Assembly (NCBI GenBank): GCA_947630495.1
Contig: CANRHS010000001.1
Coordinates: forward strand, 157 to 64,156
Origin: an uncultured Bacilli bacterium
GTDB lineage: Bacteria > Bacillota_I > Bacilli_A > RF39 > UBA660
Reading direction: 5' to 3'
DNA length: 64,000 nucleotides
The position numbers and the translations under genes are program-made. The notes under the pieces are model-generated. The model ran no database searches. It had not been told where the DNA came from and saw only the letters and a program-made list of their open reading frames with translations. Of the stretch, positions 25,489 to 32,258 are shown one piece after another; position 1 is the stretch's first letter; each line of letters opens with the position of its first letter.

Positions 25489-25896
25489 TATAACACTTCC
25501 TTTCTTAATTTCTTAGAAGCGAGTGGTCCAAATGGTTAACTTTGTCCGCTTAATAATATAAGTTAAGACATTTCCCTCCCACTAAATCTATATTAATCAA
25601 ATATAGCATTACAAATAATACCATGATTTCTCTTAAAAATCAAGTATTTTTTGCAATTTTGTTAATCTTTTTTATCTCATTTTTATTATATTCTATACTT
25701 ATCACTTAAATAACCTAGAAATTAGAAAGATGAATATATTTTAAAGTAGTAAAAATAACAACTAAAAAACCTATACAACTATTGTAACAATTGGTACGTA
25801 TACCAAAGTACATTGTATCTACATTCTGATTTCAAAGAATCAAGGAATAGGAATGTCCTTTACACATACATACTAAAACCTATCCTAGTATTCAAG

Positions 25897-25947
25897 CTAT
25901 AAAGGGCTTGCGCGGACGCCGTTACTATTGTTGGCATTGTTGTTGTT
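25897..25947 (-). pseudogene. Left half of a degenerate Asn-codon-rich duplicate of the 3' end of the 29734-31233 gene (TR-like remnant)
   Basis: The minus strand reads aac aac aac aat gcc aac aat agt aac ggc gtc cgc gca agc cct tta tag (NNNNANNSNGVRASPL*). The gene's own end is tac tac tac atc gcg agt gtc tat tgc ggc gtc cgc gca gcc (YYYIASVYCGVRAA). Confidence 0.5.
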
Positions 25948-26030
25948 ATACGAAAAAATTTGTTATGCGAACAAAACAAAAAAGTTATTAAAAAAATCAT
26001 TATTTGCTAATGATTTTTTTCGCATAATAT

Positions 26031-27020
26031 TTACTTTAATGATAGTAATTGTTTAAGCAAATCCTCATTTTTATTCCAAGATGGTGTGATATTATAAGGC
26101 AAAATATCTTTATAAGCTTTATTAATTGCTTCTCGTTTTGTTTTTTCGTTTGCTTGAGCATATATTTCAGTTGTTGTTATACTCTCATGCCCTAAAAAAT
26201 CTCTAATGTATACGATATTAACTCCGGCTTCTAATAAATGCATTGCTCTAGTTCTTCTAAGTGCATGTGGAGAAATTTTTTTATTTATATTTGCTTTTTG
26301 TATATATTTATCAACAATTTTTTGAATACTCCTTGATGTCAATTTTTCTTTTTTGGAATTACTAAAAAGGTATGAAACATTAGAAAAGTCATTTTCACTA
26401 ATAAATTGCAATAATAATTTTTTGGTATTATTCATTATAGGAACAGAACGTCCTTTTCTACCTTTTCCTATAACATTAACGCATGGATTATTATCTAATC
26501 TTAAATCCATTACCTTAATTTCTAAAAGTTCTGATAATCTTAGACCTGCATCATATAATAAATTTAATAAAACAAAATCCCTACGTCCTTTTATAGTCTT
26601 TGTATTAATAGTTTGAAATACAGTTTGTAATTCATCTATAGTTAAGTATTCTTTTTTTTTCTTCACATTTTTTTTGACTCTTATTTGTAATATATCTTGA
26701 AATTTAATTAAGTTAGCAGGATCTTCTATATTTACATATTGATAAAAAGATTTAATGGCAGCAAGTCTTTGATTTCTTGTATTTATTGAACAATTTCTTG
26801 CATCTTCTAAATATTTCAAAAATTCCTTTATTAAATCTTTATCAATTATTTCAAATGTTATATTTTTTATTTCTATTTTTTTAATATTTACCAAATAAGA
26901 TATTAATAAATTAAAAGTATCTTTATATGAAATTATTGTATTTATAGAAGCATTAATTTCCTGAGGTAAATATATATTAAAAAAATTATTTAAATAATAA
27001 GCAAAATTTTTATTATTCAT
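26031..27020 (-). CDS. ritC: Tyrosine recombinase, third gene of the RIT trio
   Basis: 329 aa. C-terminal catalytic region HALRRTRAMHLLEAG...TTEIYAQ (R..H..R..Y). Its start overlaps the stop of ritB. Confidence 0.7.
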   Translation of the reverse strand: MNNKNFAYYLNNFFNIYLPQEINASINTIISYKDTFNLLISYLVNIKKIEIKNITFEIIDKDLIKEFLKYLEDARNCSINTRNQRLAAIKSFYQYVNIEDPANLIKFQDILQIRVKKNVKKKKEYLTIDELQTVFQTINTKTIKGRRDFVLLNLLYDAGLRLSELLEIKVMDLRLDNNPCVNVIGKGRKGRSVPIMNNTKKLLLQFISENDFSNVSYLFSNSKKEKLTSRSIQKIVDKYIQKANINKKISPHALRRTRAMHLLEAGVNIVYIRDFLGHESITTTEIYAQANEKTKREAINKAYKDILPYNITPSWNKNEDLLKQLLSLK

Positions 27021-27990
27021 CTTCTAAATCCTCCATTTCTAAAATTAAATTACTACCATATTTTTCAATTTGTGTTCTTATGCTTGGATACATATCTGAA
27101 GTAAGACGTAGATAGTAAGCTGTAGAAGATATTTTTGTGTGACCAACATAAGTGCTTAATATAGGAAGATAACTATTAATATCGATTCCATTTTCTACCG
27201 CTTGTTTTAAACTTAAAACACAAAATGTATGTCTAAAATCATGTAATCTTGGACCATTTTCTGTGTGTTTAATTTTAGAATAATGTAAAATTTTTCTGAA
27301 ACAGCTATAGATACTATCCGGTGTATATTTAGTGCCATTTCCATGTCTGAAAAAATAATCTTCTTTTTTATAATTTTGATTGTAATTAATATTTATATAA
27401 TTTAGTTTTTGCATTAATTTTTCAGAAATTACAATTATTCTGGTTTCAGTATTTTTAGTATTATGAATAGTGATTGAATTATTATTAAAATCTATATCTT
27501 CTATTTTAATATTAACACATTCTGATACTCTTAATCCAGTTGAATATAATAAATTAAAAATTGCATTAACTACTAAATTTTTATATGTATCAGTATAATA
27601 AAAATTTTCTAGTGTTTTAAAGAAAATTGTTAATTCTTCTTTGGTAAAAATATGAGGAATGTGTGTTTCATTACCACGTTTATATTTTTTATTTGGAATA
27701 ACATATGCTTCAATGCCATTAGAAACTAAATATTTAGCAAATTGTCTTAAAACTGATGCATAGGCACTTTTACTACATTGTTTTATATTTTTAGAATTTA
27801 AGAAATTTTCTAATATTTTTTTAGTGATTACTTTAGCATCACTATTATTTAAAAGTGTATAGTTATCGAACACTACTAGTTTTGATTTTTGAGAATAGTA
27901 ATTATAACCAAGTTTTATTTTATATTCATAGTATTGATATAAATAATCTTTAAATGGTCCATTAAAAATATTATTATTCATTAGTATCAT
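27013..27990 (-). CDS. ritB: Tyrosine recombinase, second gene of the RIT trio
   Basis: 325 aa. GLRVSECVNIKIEDID, HDFRHTFCVLSL and STAYYLR catalytic-tyrosine region. Confidence 0.7.
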   Translation of the reverse strand: MILMNNNIFNGPFKDYLYQYYEYKIKLGYNYYSQKSKLVVFDNYTLLNNSDAKVITKKILENFLNSKNIKQCSKSAYASVLRQFAKYLVSNGIEAYVIPNKKYKRGNETHIPHIFTKEELTIFFKTLENFYYTDTYKNLVVNAIFNLLYSTGLRVSECVNIKIEDIDFNNNSITIHNTKNTETRIIVISEKLMQKLNYININYNQNYKKEDYFFRHGNGTKYTPDSIYSCFRKILHYSKIKHTENGPRLHDFRHTFCVLSLKQAVENGIDINSYLPILSTYVGHTKISSTAYYLRLTSDMYPSIRTQIEKYGSNLILEMEDLEDE

Positions 27991-29239
27991 CCTCCAAAAA
28001 ACACTTTTTTAAAGAATTGGTATCAATTTTTAGGTAATTTCTTGTACTTTCTATATTTACATGTCCTAAAGTAGATGCTATAATTTCCATTGGAATATTT
28101 GCTTTTAACATTGAACTGGCTAAAGTGTGTCTAAAAGTATGTATTCCTTTTCTTGCTTTTGATAAATAATCTATATTTGCCTTTTGGTAAGTTTTTATTA
28201 AATATTTCTCAATATTTGCGGTATCACTTAATTTCGATGCTTTATCATCATGAGTTACAAAAATATATTTCGAATCAGTTTTGGGTCTACCATTTTGAAC
28301 ATAATTAATAATAGCTATTCCAACATCTTCAAAAAGTGGTAATTGTATTTCAACTTTTGTTTTATGGTGAATAAAAGTTATTGTATTATTTTCCCAATCT
28401 ATGTTAGAAAATTGAAGATTTTTAATATCAATAAATCTAATACCTAATCTAATAGCTAATAGAACAATTGCCTTATTCCTTTTTTCAACATCACTTTCAT
28501 CTACTAAATTATTAACTATTTTTTCAAGTTCCTCAGGTTCCCAAATTGTTACTAAACTGATTGGGGCGTGATATTTTATTTTATCAATTAAGACTGAATA
28601 ATTAGAAATAGTATATTTACTTTCGTATAAAAAATTTAAAAACATTTTTAAAGCCCAATTATAATTTTTTCTAATATAATAGCTTGAGTCATAATATTTA
28701 TTAATAAATTTTTGAATTACACTTAAAGTTAATTTTTCATAATTATCAATACTTTCATTTTCAAAAAAGACCATAATATCTTTTGTAAGTTTTATTTTTT
28801 TTGTAATTGTCACTTCTGAATTGTAATTTTTCATTTCTTGCTTATATTTTTCTAATATTTCCTTATTATAATTAGAAATATTAATTTCATAATGATTATT
28901 AATTATTCTTGAACTTTTTGTTTTTAATTTTAAAGCATTTAATCCTTCAAGAGCATTTATAGAGTGTATAGTGTACAAATAATCTTTATGACTTTTATTA
29001 TTTTTTTGATAATCCAAATATAATTGTTTGCTATTATCATCATAACTCAAGTTATTTTTTTGCAAAAAATCCAATAACTGTTTCCAATTGCGACACATCT
29101 GATTGTAAAAATTATAACTATAGTTACCAATCAGAATTTCCTCCTTTCTTTTTTCGATTAATTCGTTTAATGATAAATAATTCATATTTATCTCCCTCCT
29201 TTTTTGCCATTTAAAAACGATATTAAATGACAAATACAT
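27974..29239 (-). CDS. ritA: Tyrosine recombinase with an extended N-terminal domain, first gene of the RIT trio
   Basis: 421 aa. LGIRFIDIKNLQF, HTFRHTLASSML and TRNYLKID. Probable true start at MNYLSLNE near 29185. Confidence 0.7.
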   Translation of the reverse strand: MYLSFNIVFKWQKRREINMNYLSLNELIEKRKEEILIGNYSYNFYNQMCRNWKQLLDFLQKNNLSYDDNSKQLYLDYQKNNKSHKDYLYTIHSINALEGLNALKLKTKSSRIINNHYEINISNYNKEILEKYKQEMKNYNSEVTITKKIKLTKDIMVFFENESIDNYEKLTLSVIQKFINKYYDSSYYIRKNYNWALKMFLNFLYESKYTISNYSVLIDKIKYHAPISLVTIWEPEELEKIVNNLVDESDVEKRNKAIVLLAIRLGIRFIDIKNLQFSNIDWENNTITFIHHKTKVEIQLPLFEDVGIAIINYVQNGRPKTDSKYIFVTHDDKASKLSDTANIEKYLIKTYQKANIDYLSKARKGIHTFRHTLASSMLKANIPMEIIASTLGHVNIESTRNYLKIDTNSLKKCFLEDDTNE

Positions 29240-29384
29240 ATTATATCATTATACGAAAAAAAATCATTATTTTTTTAATGATTTTGCAACATTTTATACT
29301 CAACAGAAGAAGTTAAAATATAGAATGAACTTATTTTATTAATTTTTATGAATTTAAATTTTTTCGCATAACAAATTTTTTCGT

Positions 29385-29500
29385 ATAACAACAATTATGT
29401 GAATTTTCACATAATTGTTGTTAACGGTCCCATCCGAATTCCAATTAGCGACATTATTAGAGTTACTAGCGGAAGGCGACAAGAACCACAGGCGCCAATT
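29385..29500 (-). pseudogene. Right half of the degenerate Asn-rich duplicate of the gene's 3' end (TR-like remnant)
   Basis: The minus strand reads WRLWFLSPSASNSNNVANWNSDGTVNNNY. The gene encodes GEWFLSPSSYGSNYVALWGSSGRVYYYI. Confidence 0.5.
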
Positions 29501-29580
29501 AACTATATCCTATTTTCCGACAATAAAATGTTGTATTTTTACTACTTTAAAATAACAAATATTAATATTAGGTAAAATCT

Positions 29581-29733: not shown

Positions 29734-31233
29734 TCAGGATATCAAGGTGTAAGGTGCTGTCAAACTTCCATCATTATTTCCTGTTATTTGTACGGTGGAT
29801 TTAAGATAAATGGCTGCGCGGACGCCGCAATAGACACTCGCGATGTAGTAGTACACACGGCCACTACTGCCCCAGAGAGCGACATAGTTAGAGCCATAGG
29901 AAGACGGCGACAAGAACCATTCGCCAGCCGGGTTGGCTGTTTTATATAGCCAACTTGTTCCTACTACTGTACTTGTAAATCCTGAAATTCCTGTTTTTGT
30001 TGTCCAATAACTACTATCTACACTATACCCATAATCACTTGGATACATTAATCCTATTTTTCCTGTCCATGGATTATAATCTGATGTACTTCTTTCTTGC
30101 GTATATAAATTTACTGTTGTTGCTTCATATGTTACTTTTCCTAAATACCATTTTGCTTCTTCATATATCATATTTTGTGCTTTACTTGTTAATGATGTTA
30201 AATAACTTCCATTTAAATATGTATTTACTTCCGATGATGTCCAACTTGGATTATTGCTACTATTCCATACCATTGAAGATGATGATACACTATTTCTTAC
30301 TATCTTCATATGTTCATTTTCACTATCATCTTTAAAGATTCCTATTATTCGCCATGTTTCACAATTACTTGAATTTTGTTCACTTGTACTATCGCTACAA
30401 TTGAAATATACATAATTATTTACTGTCTCTCCTGAATATCTATATTCTCTTATTGTTGATTTATCAGCACTTTTATCTGTAATTGGTTCACAACTTTCTT
30501 CACTACATGTTGTTGGTATTCCTATCAATCCATCCGTTCCTAACTTGGCTTTTAACATTTCAGTTGCTACTACTGTTGTTGGGGTTTCTTGTTCTTCTTC
30601 TAATGTCTTTTCTTCAAAGTCTCCATTGACTGATACTTTTACTGATGCAAAAGCGTCACGATTCCAGGTTTCCATGTCCATATCTGATGTTTCGGCATCA
30701 TCTCCTGAACCTAAATGCATTTCATTTGATACCCACATATATAACTTATAGGTAATTGTTATTTCATCAGTTTGATTTGCTGCTATTTTATTTACCCAGA
30801 TTTTTTTACCATCTTCAAAATTGTCATACTTTCCTTCAGCAATTACTTCTTGTTCTTCACCATCTGGTAATTGTTCAGTTAATCTAAATCTTAAGAACTC
30901 ATCTGGTATTCTTGTATGTCTATCAACTGGCTCGTCTCCCCATTTAATTACTATTTCATACCAGATTGGTTTTGTATATGTATTCTTTCCTTCTATTGTA
31001 AACTCGAATACTTGACTTGGGTCATATGTATTTGTTGGCATTGCATTTTGAATATTTATTGTAGAACTTCCTTCGGTATACTTCATATAAATATCTCCCG
31101 CAACGAGTTGTTGATTAGGGCCAACCTTAAAATAATTCCATAAGGCATATGTTCCTGTTATGATTAATGTTAATACTAATAATACTGCTCCTAGTATTAC
31201 CCATTTTCTCTTTTTTAAATATTTGTTTTCCAT
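29734..31233 (-). CDS. Secreted protein with a SipW-cognate-type signal peptide and a GC-rich C-terminal DUF1566/C-type-lectin-like variable-region-like segment
   Basis: N-terminus KKRKWVILGAVLLVLTLIITGTYALWNYF resembles the ...GTFAYF class of signal peptides. C-terminus SWLYKTANPAGEWFLSPSSYGSNYVALWGSSGRVYYYIASVYCGVRAAIYL is encoded by a locally >50% GC stretch (29737-29930). Confidence 0.55.
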   Translation of the reverse strand: MENKYLKKRKWVILGAVLLVLTLIITGTYALWNYFKVGPNQQLVAGDIYMKYTEGSSTINIQNAMPTNTYDPSQVFEFTIEGKNTYTKPIWYEIVIKWGDEPVDRHTRIPDEFLRFRLTEQLPDGEEQEVIAEGKYDNFEDGKKIWVNKIAANQTDEITITYKLYMWVSNEMHLGSGDDAETSDMDMETWNRDAFASVKVSVNGDFEEKTLEEEQETPTTVVATEMLKAKLGTDGLIGIPTTCSEESCEPITDKSADKSTIREYRYSGETVNNYVYFNCSDSTSEQNSSNCETWRIIGIFKDDSENEHMKIVRNSVSSSSMVWNSSNNPSWTSSEVNTYLNGSYLTSLTSKAQNMIYEEAKWYLGKVTYEATTVNLYTQERSTSDYNPWTGKIGLMYPSDYGYSVDSSYWTTKTGISGFTSTVVGTSWLYKTANPAGEWFLSPSSYGSNYVALWGSSGRVYYYIASVYCGVRAAIYLKSTVQITGNNDGSLTAPYTLIS

Positions 31234-31422
31234 ATTTTCTTATCCTCCTTTACATGGTCCACTATTTTAATAATATTATAAGATAAATACTTGGACTTTT
31301 CAAGTCTTTTTGAGAGAAACTCAAAAAAAGACATAGAAAAGGATAGTATTAGTATACTACTTCTCTATGTCTAAATTTGTCGAACAATATAAATTTAATT
31401 TGTACTAATATTGATAGACCCC

Positions 31423-31430
31423 CCCCATGG
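31423..31430. repeat. C8/G8 homopolymer tract in the upstream region of the secreted gene
   Basis: ttgatagaCCCCCCCCatgg, about 190 bp upstream of the start codon at 31233. Confidence 0.6.
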
Positions 31431-31559
31431 TAAACTGATTGCAAACTATAGTTCTTGATACATTTAGTAATTTTACAGCATTTTTTACCATACTCGGGTT
31501 CCTCCTTTATCTTATATGAATATCTTATCATATTTAGATAAATAGTCAAGTACTTTTAC

Positions 31560-32258
31560 TTAATTTCTTTTTAAATCTGATATTGTTTTTACTTTATCTT
31601 TATATTCTTTATTATAAGAAACTAATTCAGTTATAAAATTCATGAATAAATCTAAATCATGAATTTCAAGATCTAATATTAAATCTTTATATTCTTGATA
31701 TAACTTTCTTAATTTATCACTTTTAAAATTAGATTCTTCTAAATCAATAGTTCTAAATAAACTTTTAAGAAGACTATGATTTAAATTATTTATATTATAA
31801 ATTAAAGAATTTTTTAATTTATACCATTCACTTGTATCTATTATATTAAATTCATTACTAGAATTATCATATAAAATATTAACTCCTACTAAATCAGCCA
31901 TATAAATATTCGGAAATTTTTCTATTTCAAGTCTTATTTTATTATAAGCATTAATTAAATTATCTATTAATAAACTACTATCTAAACCTAAATAAATATC
32001 TTTTCCTTTTAAATAATTCATAGTATATGCTTTAATTAAATTACTATCTTCTAAATAATATATATCTTTAGGAAACGCAATATTAGGTGAAGTATGATCT
32101 TTTATATAAATATTTTTATATTTCCTAACTGTTTTAAATATTTTAATAACAGTATCTTTATTTAAAAAGTAACAAGACCCTTCTTTACCTTTGGCAAGAA
32201 AAGTATTATTACTTTCTATTTCTAATATATCTATAATATTAACTAAGACTTTACCCAT
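31560..32258 (-). CDS. Small protein-kinase-like/phosphotransferase-fold protein, translationally coupled to nusG
   Basis: Gly-rich loop and Lys (KGKEGSCYFLNKDTVIKIFK), catalytic-loop-like IYMADLVGVNILYD, DFG-like FNIIDTSEW. The ATG starts 2 nt after the nusG TAG. Confidence 0.4.
   Translation of the reverse strand: MGKVLVNIIDILEIESNNTFLAKGKEGSCYFLNKDTVIKIFKTVRKYKNIYIKDHTSPNIAFPKDIYYLEDSNLIKAYTMNYLKGKDIYLGLDSSLLIDNLINAYNKIRLEIEKFPNIYMADLVGVNILYDNSSNEFNIIDTSEWYKLKNSLIYNINNLNHSLLKSLFRTIDLEESNFKSDKLRKLYQEYKDLILDLEIHDLDLFMNFITELVSYNKEYKDKVKTISDLKRN

Follow-up and report, generated by a model that had tools for sequence, protein, structure and literature searches.

Genes and terminal sequences at the locus

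We analyzed a stretch of 64,000 nucleotides from an uncultured Bacilli bacterium (contig CANRHS010000001.1 of assembly GCA_947630495.1), hereafter the window, in which three tyrosine recombinase genes lie between inverted repeats (IRs) upstream of rplK. The results support the view that this unit is a recombinase-in-trio (RIT) element, a known kind of mobile element, in a new host lineage. An earlier examination of the letters alone, here called the sequence-only reading, had described three overlapping, co-oriented recombinase genes of 421, 325, and 329 amino acids (aa), and these were present as open reading frames (ORFs) on the minus strand between 26031 and 29239. Near full-length PF00589 (Phage_integrase) catalytic domains were detected with Pfam in all three products (E = 5e-26, 3e-23, and 5e-35), and an N-terminal SAM-like domain was additionally detected in the third, RitC. 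The R..H..R..Y blocks that had been reported could likewise be read in the translations: GIR/HTFRH/GHVNIESTRNY in RitA, GLR/HDFRH/GHTKISSTAYY in RitB, and GLR/HALRR/GHESITTTEIY in RitC. Among 12 RitA homologues, residues R251, K276, H350, R353, H376, and Y385 were in invariant columns. The features of the element are as follows.

25940..25971, plus strand: left terminal inverted repeat at the ritC end, with direct TTATRCGAA... copies at 25946 and 25963, 17 bp apart
25990..26028, minus strand: ritC-end hairpin and inverted motif, a 13-bp stem followed by a T run, with the motif at 26014-26028
26031..27020, minus strand: ritC, 329 aa, Xer-like, with a 26-residue tail past the Xer profile
27013..27981, minus strand: ritB, 322 aa, within an ORF that runs to 27990; 8-bp overlap with each neighboring gene
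27974..29185, minus strand: ritA, 403 aa, within an ORF that runs to 29239; GGAGGGAG ribosome-binding site upstream
29240..29285, minus strand: ritA control region, with a -10 box at 29240-29248, an inner motif at 29248-29263, and a hairpin at 29260-29285
29363..29394, minus strand: right terminal inverted repeat at the ritA end, with motif copies at 29359-29371 and 29376-29388
29395..29414, no strand assigned: 20-bp near-palindrome TTATGTGAATTTTCACATAA, two inverted motif-like arms outside the ritA-end IR

The start of ritA is almost certainly the ATG at 29185, which follows the GGAGGGAG ribosome-binding site and gives a product of 403 aa, the same RitA as in the public gene call P0055. The start of ritB is likely at 27981, giving 322 aa, the length called in its relatives. 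With these starts, the genes overlap by 8 bp at both junctions. In an AlphaFold2 model of RitA, built from a shallow alignment and with an overall predicted template modeling score of 0.42, two four-helix bundles (residues 4-79 and 106-189; predicted local distance difference test scores of 83-95) preceded the catalytic domain. All three proteins were Xer-like in the profile search, and none reached the housekeeping XerC/XerD cut-offs (330-335 bits), the best being RitC with 189 bits. The XerC/XerD profiles stopped at residue 303 of the 329 in RitC, leaving a 26-residue tail (...NKNEDLLKQLLSLK).

The 32-mer TTGTTGTTATACGAAAAAATTTGTTATGCGAA occurred exactly twice in the 64 kb, once on each strand, against 0 copies expected from 100 shuffles. 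The repeats are thus perfect, as had been reported, and the left one lies where it was placed; the right one is at 29363-29394 instead of 29353-29384, so that the earlier right-hand coordinates were 10 bp too low. The distance from IR to IR is 3,455 bp, or 3,475 bp with the palindrome, and the G+C content of the element is 22%. Both IRs are built from a pair of direct TTATRCGAA copies at a spacing of 17 bp, a distance shared by relatives, by the Bacillus sp. S3 plasmid, and by numerous other RIT families. A third copy, inverted, lies further inside each end and abuts an AT-rich hairpin (25990-26028 and 29248-29285).

A subterminal hairpin at each end had been noted before and was found at 25990-26020 and 29260-29285. 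The former, with a folding energy of -9.8 kcal/mol (z = -4.2), lies just past the ritC stop and is terminator-like; it is kept in the related locus L094 with a different stem sequence. The latter had a folding z of -2.7. At the ritA end, an extended -10 box, TGATATAAT (29240-29248), directly follows the inner motif, and three of the four related subfamilies retain TGnTATAAT immediately behind the motif. This region is a candidate ritA promoter, which may be autoregulated. A simple scan for promoter and terminator consensus sequences gave no more hits than shuffled DNA, and neither the proposed ritA promoter nor the AT-rich hairpins were on its list.

Outside the right IR, a palindrome with two 18-nt arms around TT occupies 29386-29423. 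It had been placed at 29377-29412 and said to share 17 bp with the IR, both of which had to be corrected, the overlap in fact being limited to the outermost 9 bp of the IR (29386-29394). The further copy of the IR tip reported outside the right end does exist, as the 9-mer TTGTTGTTA at 29415-29423. In the orientation of the element, the 20-bp near-palindrome reads TTATGTGAAAATTCACATAA.

Relationship to known recombinase-in-trio elements

RIT elements have been described as three adjacent genes that overlap (ritA, ritB, and ritC), in a unit of ~3.5 kb with IRs of 28-34 bp and an overlapping palindrome (PMC3414803, PMC10214605). Two core-binding domains are the hallmark of RitA, and RitC has been described as having an additional C-terminal helix (PMC8138268). 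The best matches of all three window proteins were the genes at the same position in the trios of four distant taxa, namely Agrobacterium vitis pTiS4, the Bacillus sp. S3 plasmid, Lachnospiraceae bacterium 3-2, and Chryseobacterium. Identities to same-position Rit genes were 29-43%, compared with 22-27% among the three window proteins themselves, and cross-position matches were far weaker. The placing in the RitA, RitB, and RitC subfamilies is based on these same-position matches to four trios. Between the repeats there were only the three ORFs, with no cargo and no fourth gene. Gene order, short overlaps, catalytic residues, the double bundle of RitA, the length of ~3.5 kb, and the IR with its palindrome all agreed with the descriptions of RIT elements, and the sequence-only reading, which had named this class, was borne out by the order of the trio, the same-position orthology, the RitA bundles, the length, and the ~30-bp IR with palindrome.

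The archetype ritA1B1C1 of Cupriavidus metallidurans CH34 (Van Houdt 2009/2012; Ricker 2013) has the same trio in ~3.5 kb without cargo, ~30-bp terminal IRs with an overlapping palindrome, multiple copies, and reported insertion into specific genes. By contrast, the host of the window element is an uncultured Bacillota-type organism of ~27% G+C, its RitA is ~29% identical to the proteobacterial RitA, and its target is an Asn-Asn-Asn coding stretch in a gene remnant with weak DUF6273 similarity.

We also considered whether the unit might belong to another multi-recombinase class (Tn554-like, GInt/SE, or gamma-mobile-trio) or be the remnant of an integration module from a phage or an integrative and conjugative element, since all such classes carry tyrosine recombinases and weak NCBIfam GmtY matches were obtained for the Rit proteins (E = 5e-4 and 2e-8, far under the cut-off). 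Tn554, GInt, and SE elements are likewise small and mobile, carry two or three tyrosine recombinases, and are strongly target-specific, but they need a non-recombinase partner (TnpC, GinD/Srap, Tfp), and the window element has none. Tn554-like transposons encode TnpA, a long TnpB recombinase, and TnpC and lack terminal IRs, and GInt/SE elements have four conserved genes, one of them for the non-recombinase, and usually cargo. The window element has a perfect 32-bp IR, its three recombinases are of 322-403 aa, and a non-recombinase third gene is absent, as are a TnpC-, Tfp-, Srap-, or GinD-type fourth gene and a long TnpB-type protein; no cargo or phage gene lies within the repeats. Because Tn554-like and GInt/SE elements fail on these defining features and the positional orthology is to RIT trios, whose features fit, the element was filed as RIT, and another class is hardly credible.

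Element boundaries and the interrupted gene remnant

The sequence-only reading had the element end at the IRs. To define the ends, junctions were compared in four subfamilies: the window, L012/13/138/139, L094/95, and L099. A common geometry recurred, in which 6 bp separate an arm that ends in ATAA from one that begins with TTAT, and three such sites are present in the window. These putative cores and the two halves of the target are as follows.

25897..25939, minus strand: target 3' half (h3), encoding ...NANNSNGVRASPL and a stop, a remnant of a paralogue of the 499-aa gene
25933..25952, no strand assigned: hybrid core at the ritC end (attR-like), GGCATTG/TTGTTG/TTATACG, with a putative spacer at 25940-25945
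29382..29401, no strand assigned: intact internal core, CGTATAA/CAACAA/TTATGTG, between palindrome and IR
29408..29427, no strand assigned: hybrid core at the ritA end (attL-like), CACATAA/TTGTTG/TTAACGG, hybrid with host DNA
29421..29509, minus strand: target 5' half (h5), encoding DIVNWRLWFLSPSASNSNNVANWNSDGTV(NNN), with a weak DUF6273 match below the Pfam cut-off

The 20-bp near-palindrome accompanied the element in varied flanks (L099, L094/95, L012, L138, and L011), and the 6 bp outside it varied. On this comparison the palindrome is taken as part of the element, which would span 25946-29420, or 3,475 bp counting one spacer copy, with its ritA-side boundary ~26 bp beyond the IR end given before. 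The 9-bp sequence TTGTTGTTA at 29415-29423 is repeated directly at 25940-25948, at the two hybrid cores; in L099, whose context is unrelated, a 9-bp repeat (TAATTGCAG) occupies the corresponding positions. The earlier guess that the extra IR tip marks a recombination core or target was right in spirit, as the host-side copy of the repeat lies at a hybrid core.

When 25946-29420 was deleted, the ritA-side flank, which in the element's orientation encodes ...NWRLWFLSPSASNSNNVANWNSDGTV, was joined in frame to NNNNANNSNGVRASPL and a stop, giving an ORF that ends ...NWNSDGTVNNNNANNSNGVRASPL. This restored ORF resembles the uninterrupted small ORFs P0063 and P0064 (...NNTGNLNNNNANNSNGVAP). As the removal restores an in-frame paralogue remnant, its Asn-Asn-Asn coding stretch is the target. 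The remnant has 45 codons without a start codon, and a stop lies four codons upstream of Asn-Trp. It is paralogous to the C-terminus of the 499-aa gene (tblastn E = 4e-5), with a 13-nt identity in the GGCGTCCGCGCA region (25909-25921 and 29815-29827). The window has a single GTNAACAACAA, located at the insertion. In relatives, the flanks encode like motifs: NSDGNV; NWNTSGNV/NNNY; SSNAWHLNSNGYV/NNN; and NNNSPSSNANGVRPSL followed by a stop. Flanks such as CGTGAACAACAACAATGTGAAT were found beside more distant trios of the Bacilli lineage.

If the element ended exactly at the 32-bp IRs (25940-29394) and the outer palindrome were pre-existing host target DNA, the stop of the perfect IR at 29394 and the sensible coding of the outer arm (Val-Asn-Asn-Asn) would be accounted for. 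However, the palindrome follows the element into unrelated flanks (L099, after a PDDEXK_2 gene; L094/95; L012/L138) and accompanies other RIT families, and the reading frame is restored only by removal through 29420. The same was seen in a human-gut family (L106), in which removing the DNA from IR to IR together with the palindrome and one AGACGG repeat restored an ORF of >250 aa across the join. An end at the IRs is therefore improbable, and for annotation, the true edge of a RIT element includes the palindrome.

The flanks are richer in G+C (35-41%) than the window (27%). They were considered as structured RNA and this was rejected: the only Rfam hit at gathering thresholds was the L10 leader (RF00557, 24177-24288, 55.6 bits), upstream of rplJ as expected, no tRNAs were present, and the flanks are coding remnants. 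A DUF1566-like identity of the flank motif was also considered, but DUF1566 was not listed by Pfam, which gave only sub-threshold matches to the end of DUF6273 (E = 0.01 and 0.035).

The sequence-only reading had placed the insertion between rplK and nusG. Both genes flank the region, but nusG is separated from the element by ORFs of 232 and 499 aa, and the target is a gene remnant instead of plain intergenic DNA. The element lies 452 bp upstream of rplK, with the terminator-like hairpin after ritC. At 29734-32258, the usual adjacency of nusG and rplK is broken by the two ORFs, for which Pfam and NCBIfam gave no significant match. The N-terminus of the 499-aa protein has a hydrophobic stretch resembling a signal anchor, and divergent homologues of it are encoded directly upstream of rplK in L004, L006, and L012. 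Look-ups of the exact protein sequences gave no match for the 499-aa protein or the three recombinases; the ritA query had the wrong start codon.

A perfect 21-bp inverted repeat, TATTTTAAAGTAGTAAAAATA, brackets the remnant at 25737-25757 and 29534-29554, lying 182 and 139 bp outside the IRs of the element. L012 and L137 have a similar 20-mer in the corresponding position, and ~55 bp past it the L137 flank diverges from the window. Possibly the remnant is a repeated cassette of ~360 bp bounded by IRs.

Proposed recombination model and mobility of the element

All 5'-half flanks carried the palindrome, and all 3'-half flanks joined the IR directly, at either end of the element. Relatives were inserted in both orientations, always with the palindrome beside the same target half. 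At one locus, L012 and L138 share the flank and the orientation of the palindrome, but these are joined to the ritA end in L012 and to the ritC end in L138, which fits a possible inversion in place between inverted cores.

In our judgment, the best overall explanation, with a probability of about 0.75, is a RIT transposon with a double core, crossover in a 6-bp spacer, and an Asn-Asn-Asn target. The steps proposed here come from the comparison of junctions. The ends would be joined in the order IR (ritC), CAACAA, palindrome, TTGTTG, IR (ritA), with the predicted sequence ...CGTATAA CAACAA TTATGTGAAAATTCACATAA TTGTTG TTATACG... (k-mer AAATTTTTTCGTATAACAACAATTATGTGAAAATTCACATAATTGTTGTTATACGAAAAAATTT). 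This form would hold two oppositely oriented cores, each with an ATAA arm, a 6-bp spacer, and a TTAT arm, and crossover is likely to fall in the spacer CAACAA/TTGTTG between the ATAA and TTAT arms. Insertion would be a strand exchange between the spacer of one core and that of the target, which in the window is presumed to be the CAACAA within the codons for Val-Asn-Asn-Asn in a truncated paralogue of the adjacent 499-aa gene. The core used would set the orientation, and together with the polarity of the spacer this choice would leave the palindrome beside the same target half whatever the orientation. The inverted cores of an integrated copy could recombine, flipping the element in place. The predicted empty site is ...GGGACCGTTAA CAACAA CAATGCCAAC... 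(k-mer GGATGGGACCGTTAACAACAACAATGCCAACAATAGTAACGG), the predicted flipped junction is GGGACCGTTAACAACAATTATGTGAAAATTCACATAATTGTTGTTATACGAAAAAATTTGTTATGCGAACAAAAC, and the predicted target sequence is GTTAACAACAACAATGCC. A crossover in the center of the palindrome (AAAATT) was rejected, as the palindrome arm that it predicts was absent at the ritC-end junctions of the window, L013, and L099.

A domesticated, shufflon-like invertase that swaps or flips C-terminal cassettes of the 499-aa surface-type protein would not be a transposon at all. The position of the element inside a partial 3' copy of the adjacent gene, the location of relatives after 499-like genes, and the two orientations at one locus (L012 and L138) could be read in this way. 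Yet the surroundings of L099 and of many other members of the family are unrelated, and related strains have no element. Moreover, the 499-aa gene has no core-like site, the window having its sole GTNAACAACAA at the insertion and no other ATAA-N6-TTATRYG, and flipping of the element would alter no coding sequence. We regard an invertase as very unlikely.

Turning to mobility, an independent assembly (L003) carried the same insertion at 99.9% identity across the ritC-end junction. The element was absent from L004 and L006, which are 96-97% identical around rplK and have the 499-aa-gene homologue directly upstream of it, and elements 96-98% identical to that of the window had different junctions in L011 and L137. 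The finding that the sequence-only reading had named as contrary to mobility, the same trio without IRs at a conserved chromosomal position, was not encountered among these loci. Homologues with 45-70% RitA identity were almost always on contigs of 3.3-4.4 kb, as expected of repeats that break assemblies or collapse. From these comparisons, the element appears to move as a unit, and the window copy is probably active. In the near-identical copies, ritC was broken into two ORFs of 118 and 211 aa (L137:2460-3448) or shortened to 287 aa (L011:2502-3365); these could be either decaying copies or low-coverage assembly errors, and the window copy is intact.

As the contig that contains the window (64.7 kb) belongs to a metagenome-derived assembly and the element is repeated in related assemblies, its placement might be thought a mis-assembly. 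The ritC-end junction is spanned by L003, and the ritA-end junction with host flank is reproduced in L011, which makes this explanation barely plausible.

Several observations weigh against the RIT transposon model. No empty site was found for the exact locus, and the gene remnant, too, is missing from the strains without the element. Circle or tandem junctions were seen in none of the fetched contigs, and a mobilome study found exonuclease-protected RIT DNA and no circle-junction reads (PMC5737581). Most close relatives are low-coverage short-read contigs of ~3.5 kb, whose junctions may mix copies or strains. The 9-bp repeat of the window is weak evidence alone, because it is implied automatically by the IR and the palindrome there. 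Palindrome-side spacers differ (TATGTG, GAGATT, CAAAAT), and at the Lachnospiraceae locus L075 the spacer was AACTGG, not the predicted AGTCGG.

In scans of genome representatives and JGI metagenomes, no relative above 38-40% RitA identity, no empty site, and no second copy in the same species were found, and a scan of viral contigs for the palindrome-IR junction found none. According to a 2023 paper, laboratory transposition had not been reproduced for any RIT element, and target specificity, empty sites, and the mode of movement were untested (PMC10214605).

Among the fetched loci, many RIT families had an IR, a pair of motifs at 17-bp spacing, and a palindrome adjoining one of the ends. In the isolate Lachnospiraceae bacterium 3-2 (L075, L077, L080, and L083), RIT copies 99.7% identical to one another interrupt the Walker A codons of parA-type genes (KGGVG/KTT) in both orientations, with the palindrome TTATGTGAAGCTTCACATAA always on the GKTT side. 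The internal spacer of L083, CCGACT, and the native target spacer at the L075 site are reverse complements of each other, which hints that spacers may be carried between sites. In L077, the flanks are two different parA 5' halves in inverted orientation and the palindrome is absent, a structure expected of recombination between two copies. The human gut metagenome loci L105 and L106 have 100% identical RIT bodies and one shared flank (95% over 976 bp), which is joined to opposite ends of the element, and their palindrome-side flanks are unrelated. This pattern points to a RIT-associated rearrangement. In Chryseobacterium sp. JUb7 (L045:6000-12800), two complete RIT trios lie in tandem, ~4 kb apart.

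Tn916- and CTnDOT-type elements use a tyrosine recombinase and a 6-7-bp overlap ('coupling') sequence, which need not be identical between partners and is carried between sites; the reverse-complementary spacers of L083 and L075 suggest a likeness to them. They have one integrase with Xis and conjugation genes, without a palindromic double core and without a trio. The Xer/dif-, lox-, and FRT-type cores have inverted recombinase-binding arms around a 6-8-bp spacer, the polarity of which sets the outcome. RIT cores resemble these in that inverted arms flank a spacer, and the three Rit proteins are Xer-like; they differ in that two overlapping cores share a palindrome and extra tandem copies of the arm lie at 17-bp spacing.

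More tentatively, and with odds below even, RIT elements in general may use a double core with a 20-bp palindrome, the spacer being swapped with the target or carried over from it, and each subfamily may be aimed at a short conserved coding motif, such as Asn-Asn-Asn in genes with weak DUF6273 similarity (window), the Walker A motif of ParA (Lachnospiraceae), or radC (literature). A double core would generally permit integration in either orientation and flipping in place. RitA might use its two core-binding domains to read the pair of terminal motif copies that lie 17 bp apart. If true, this would be the first concrete, testable model of RIT transposition. Palindromes of RIT elements have been noted (PMC5737581), part of the end architecture may already be described in the main survey (Ricker et al. 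2013), and insertion into specific genes, radC and transposase genes, has been reported (PMC3414803, PMC10214605, PMC2864759), radC being a common target in two species (PMC2864759).

RIT elements occur widely among bacterial phyla. The window copy and its relatives yield checkable predictions, namely the joined ends, the empty site, the 6-bp crossover, and the side of the palindrome, and this suggests that the value of the finding lies in an explicit, testable model of recombination sites and target choice. For annotation, RIT copies also mark disrupted members of specific gene families.

A second polymorphism was seen in the intergenic region upstream of rplK. An extra insert of ~324 bp is present there in related genomes (L001:1-237 and L005:156-478), at a position corresponding to ~25672 of the window, and holds a G+C-rich hairpin, AAAAGCAAGGG...CCCTTGCTTTT.

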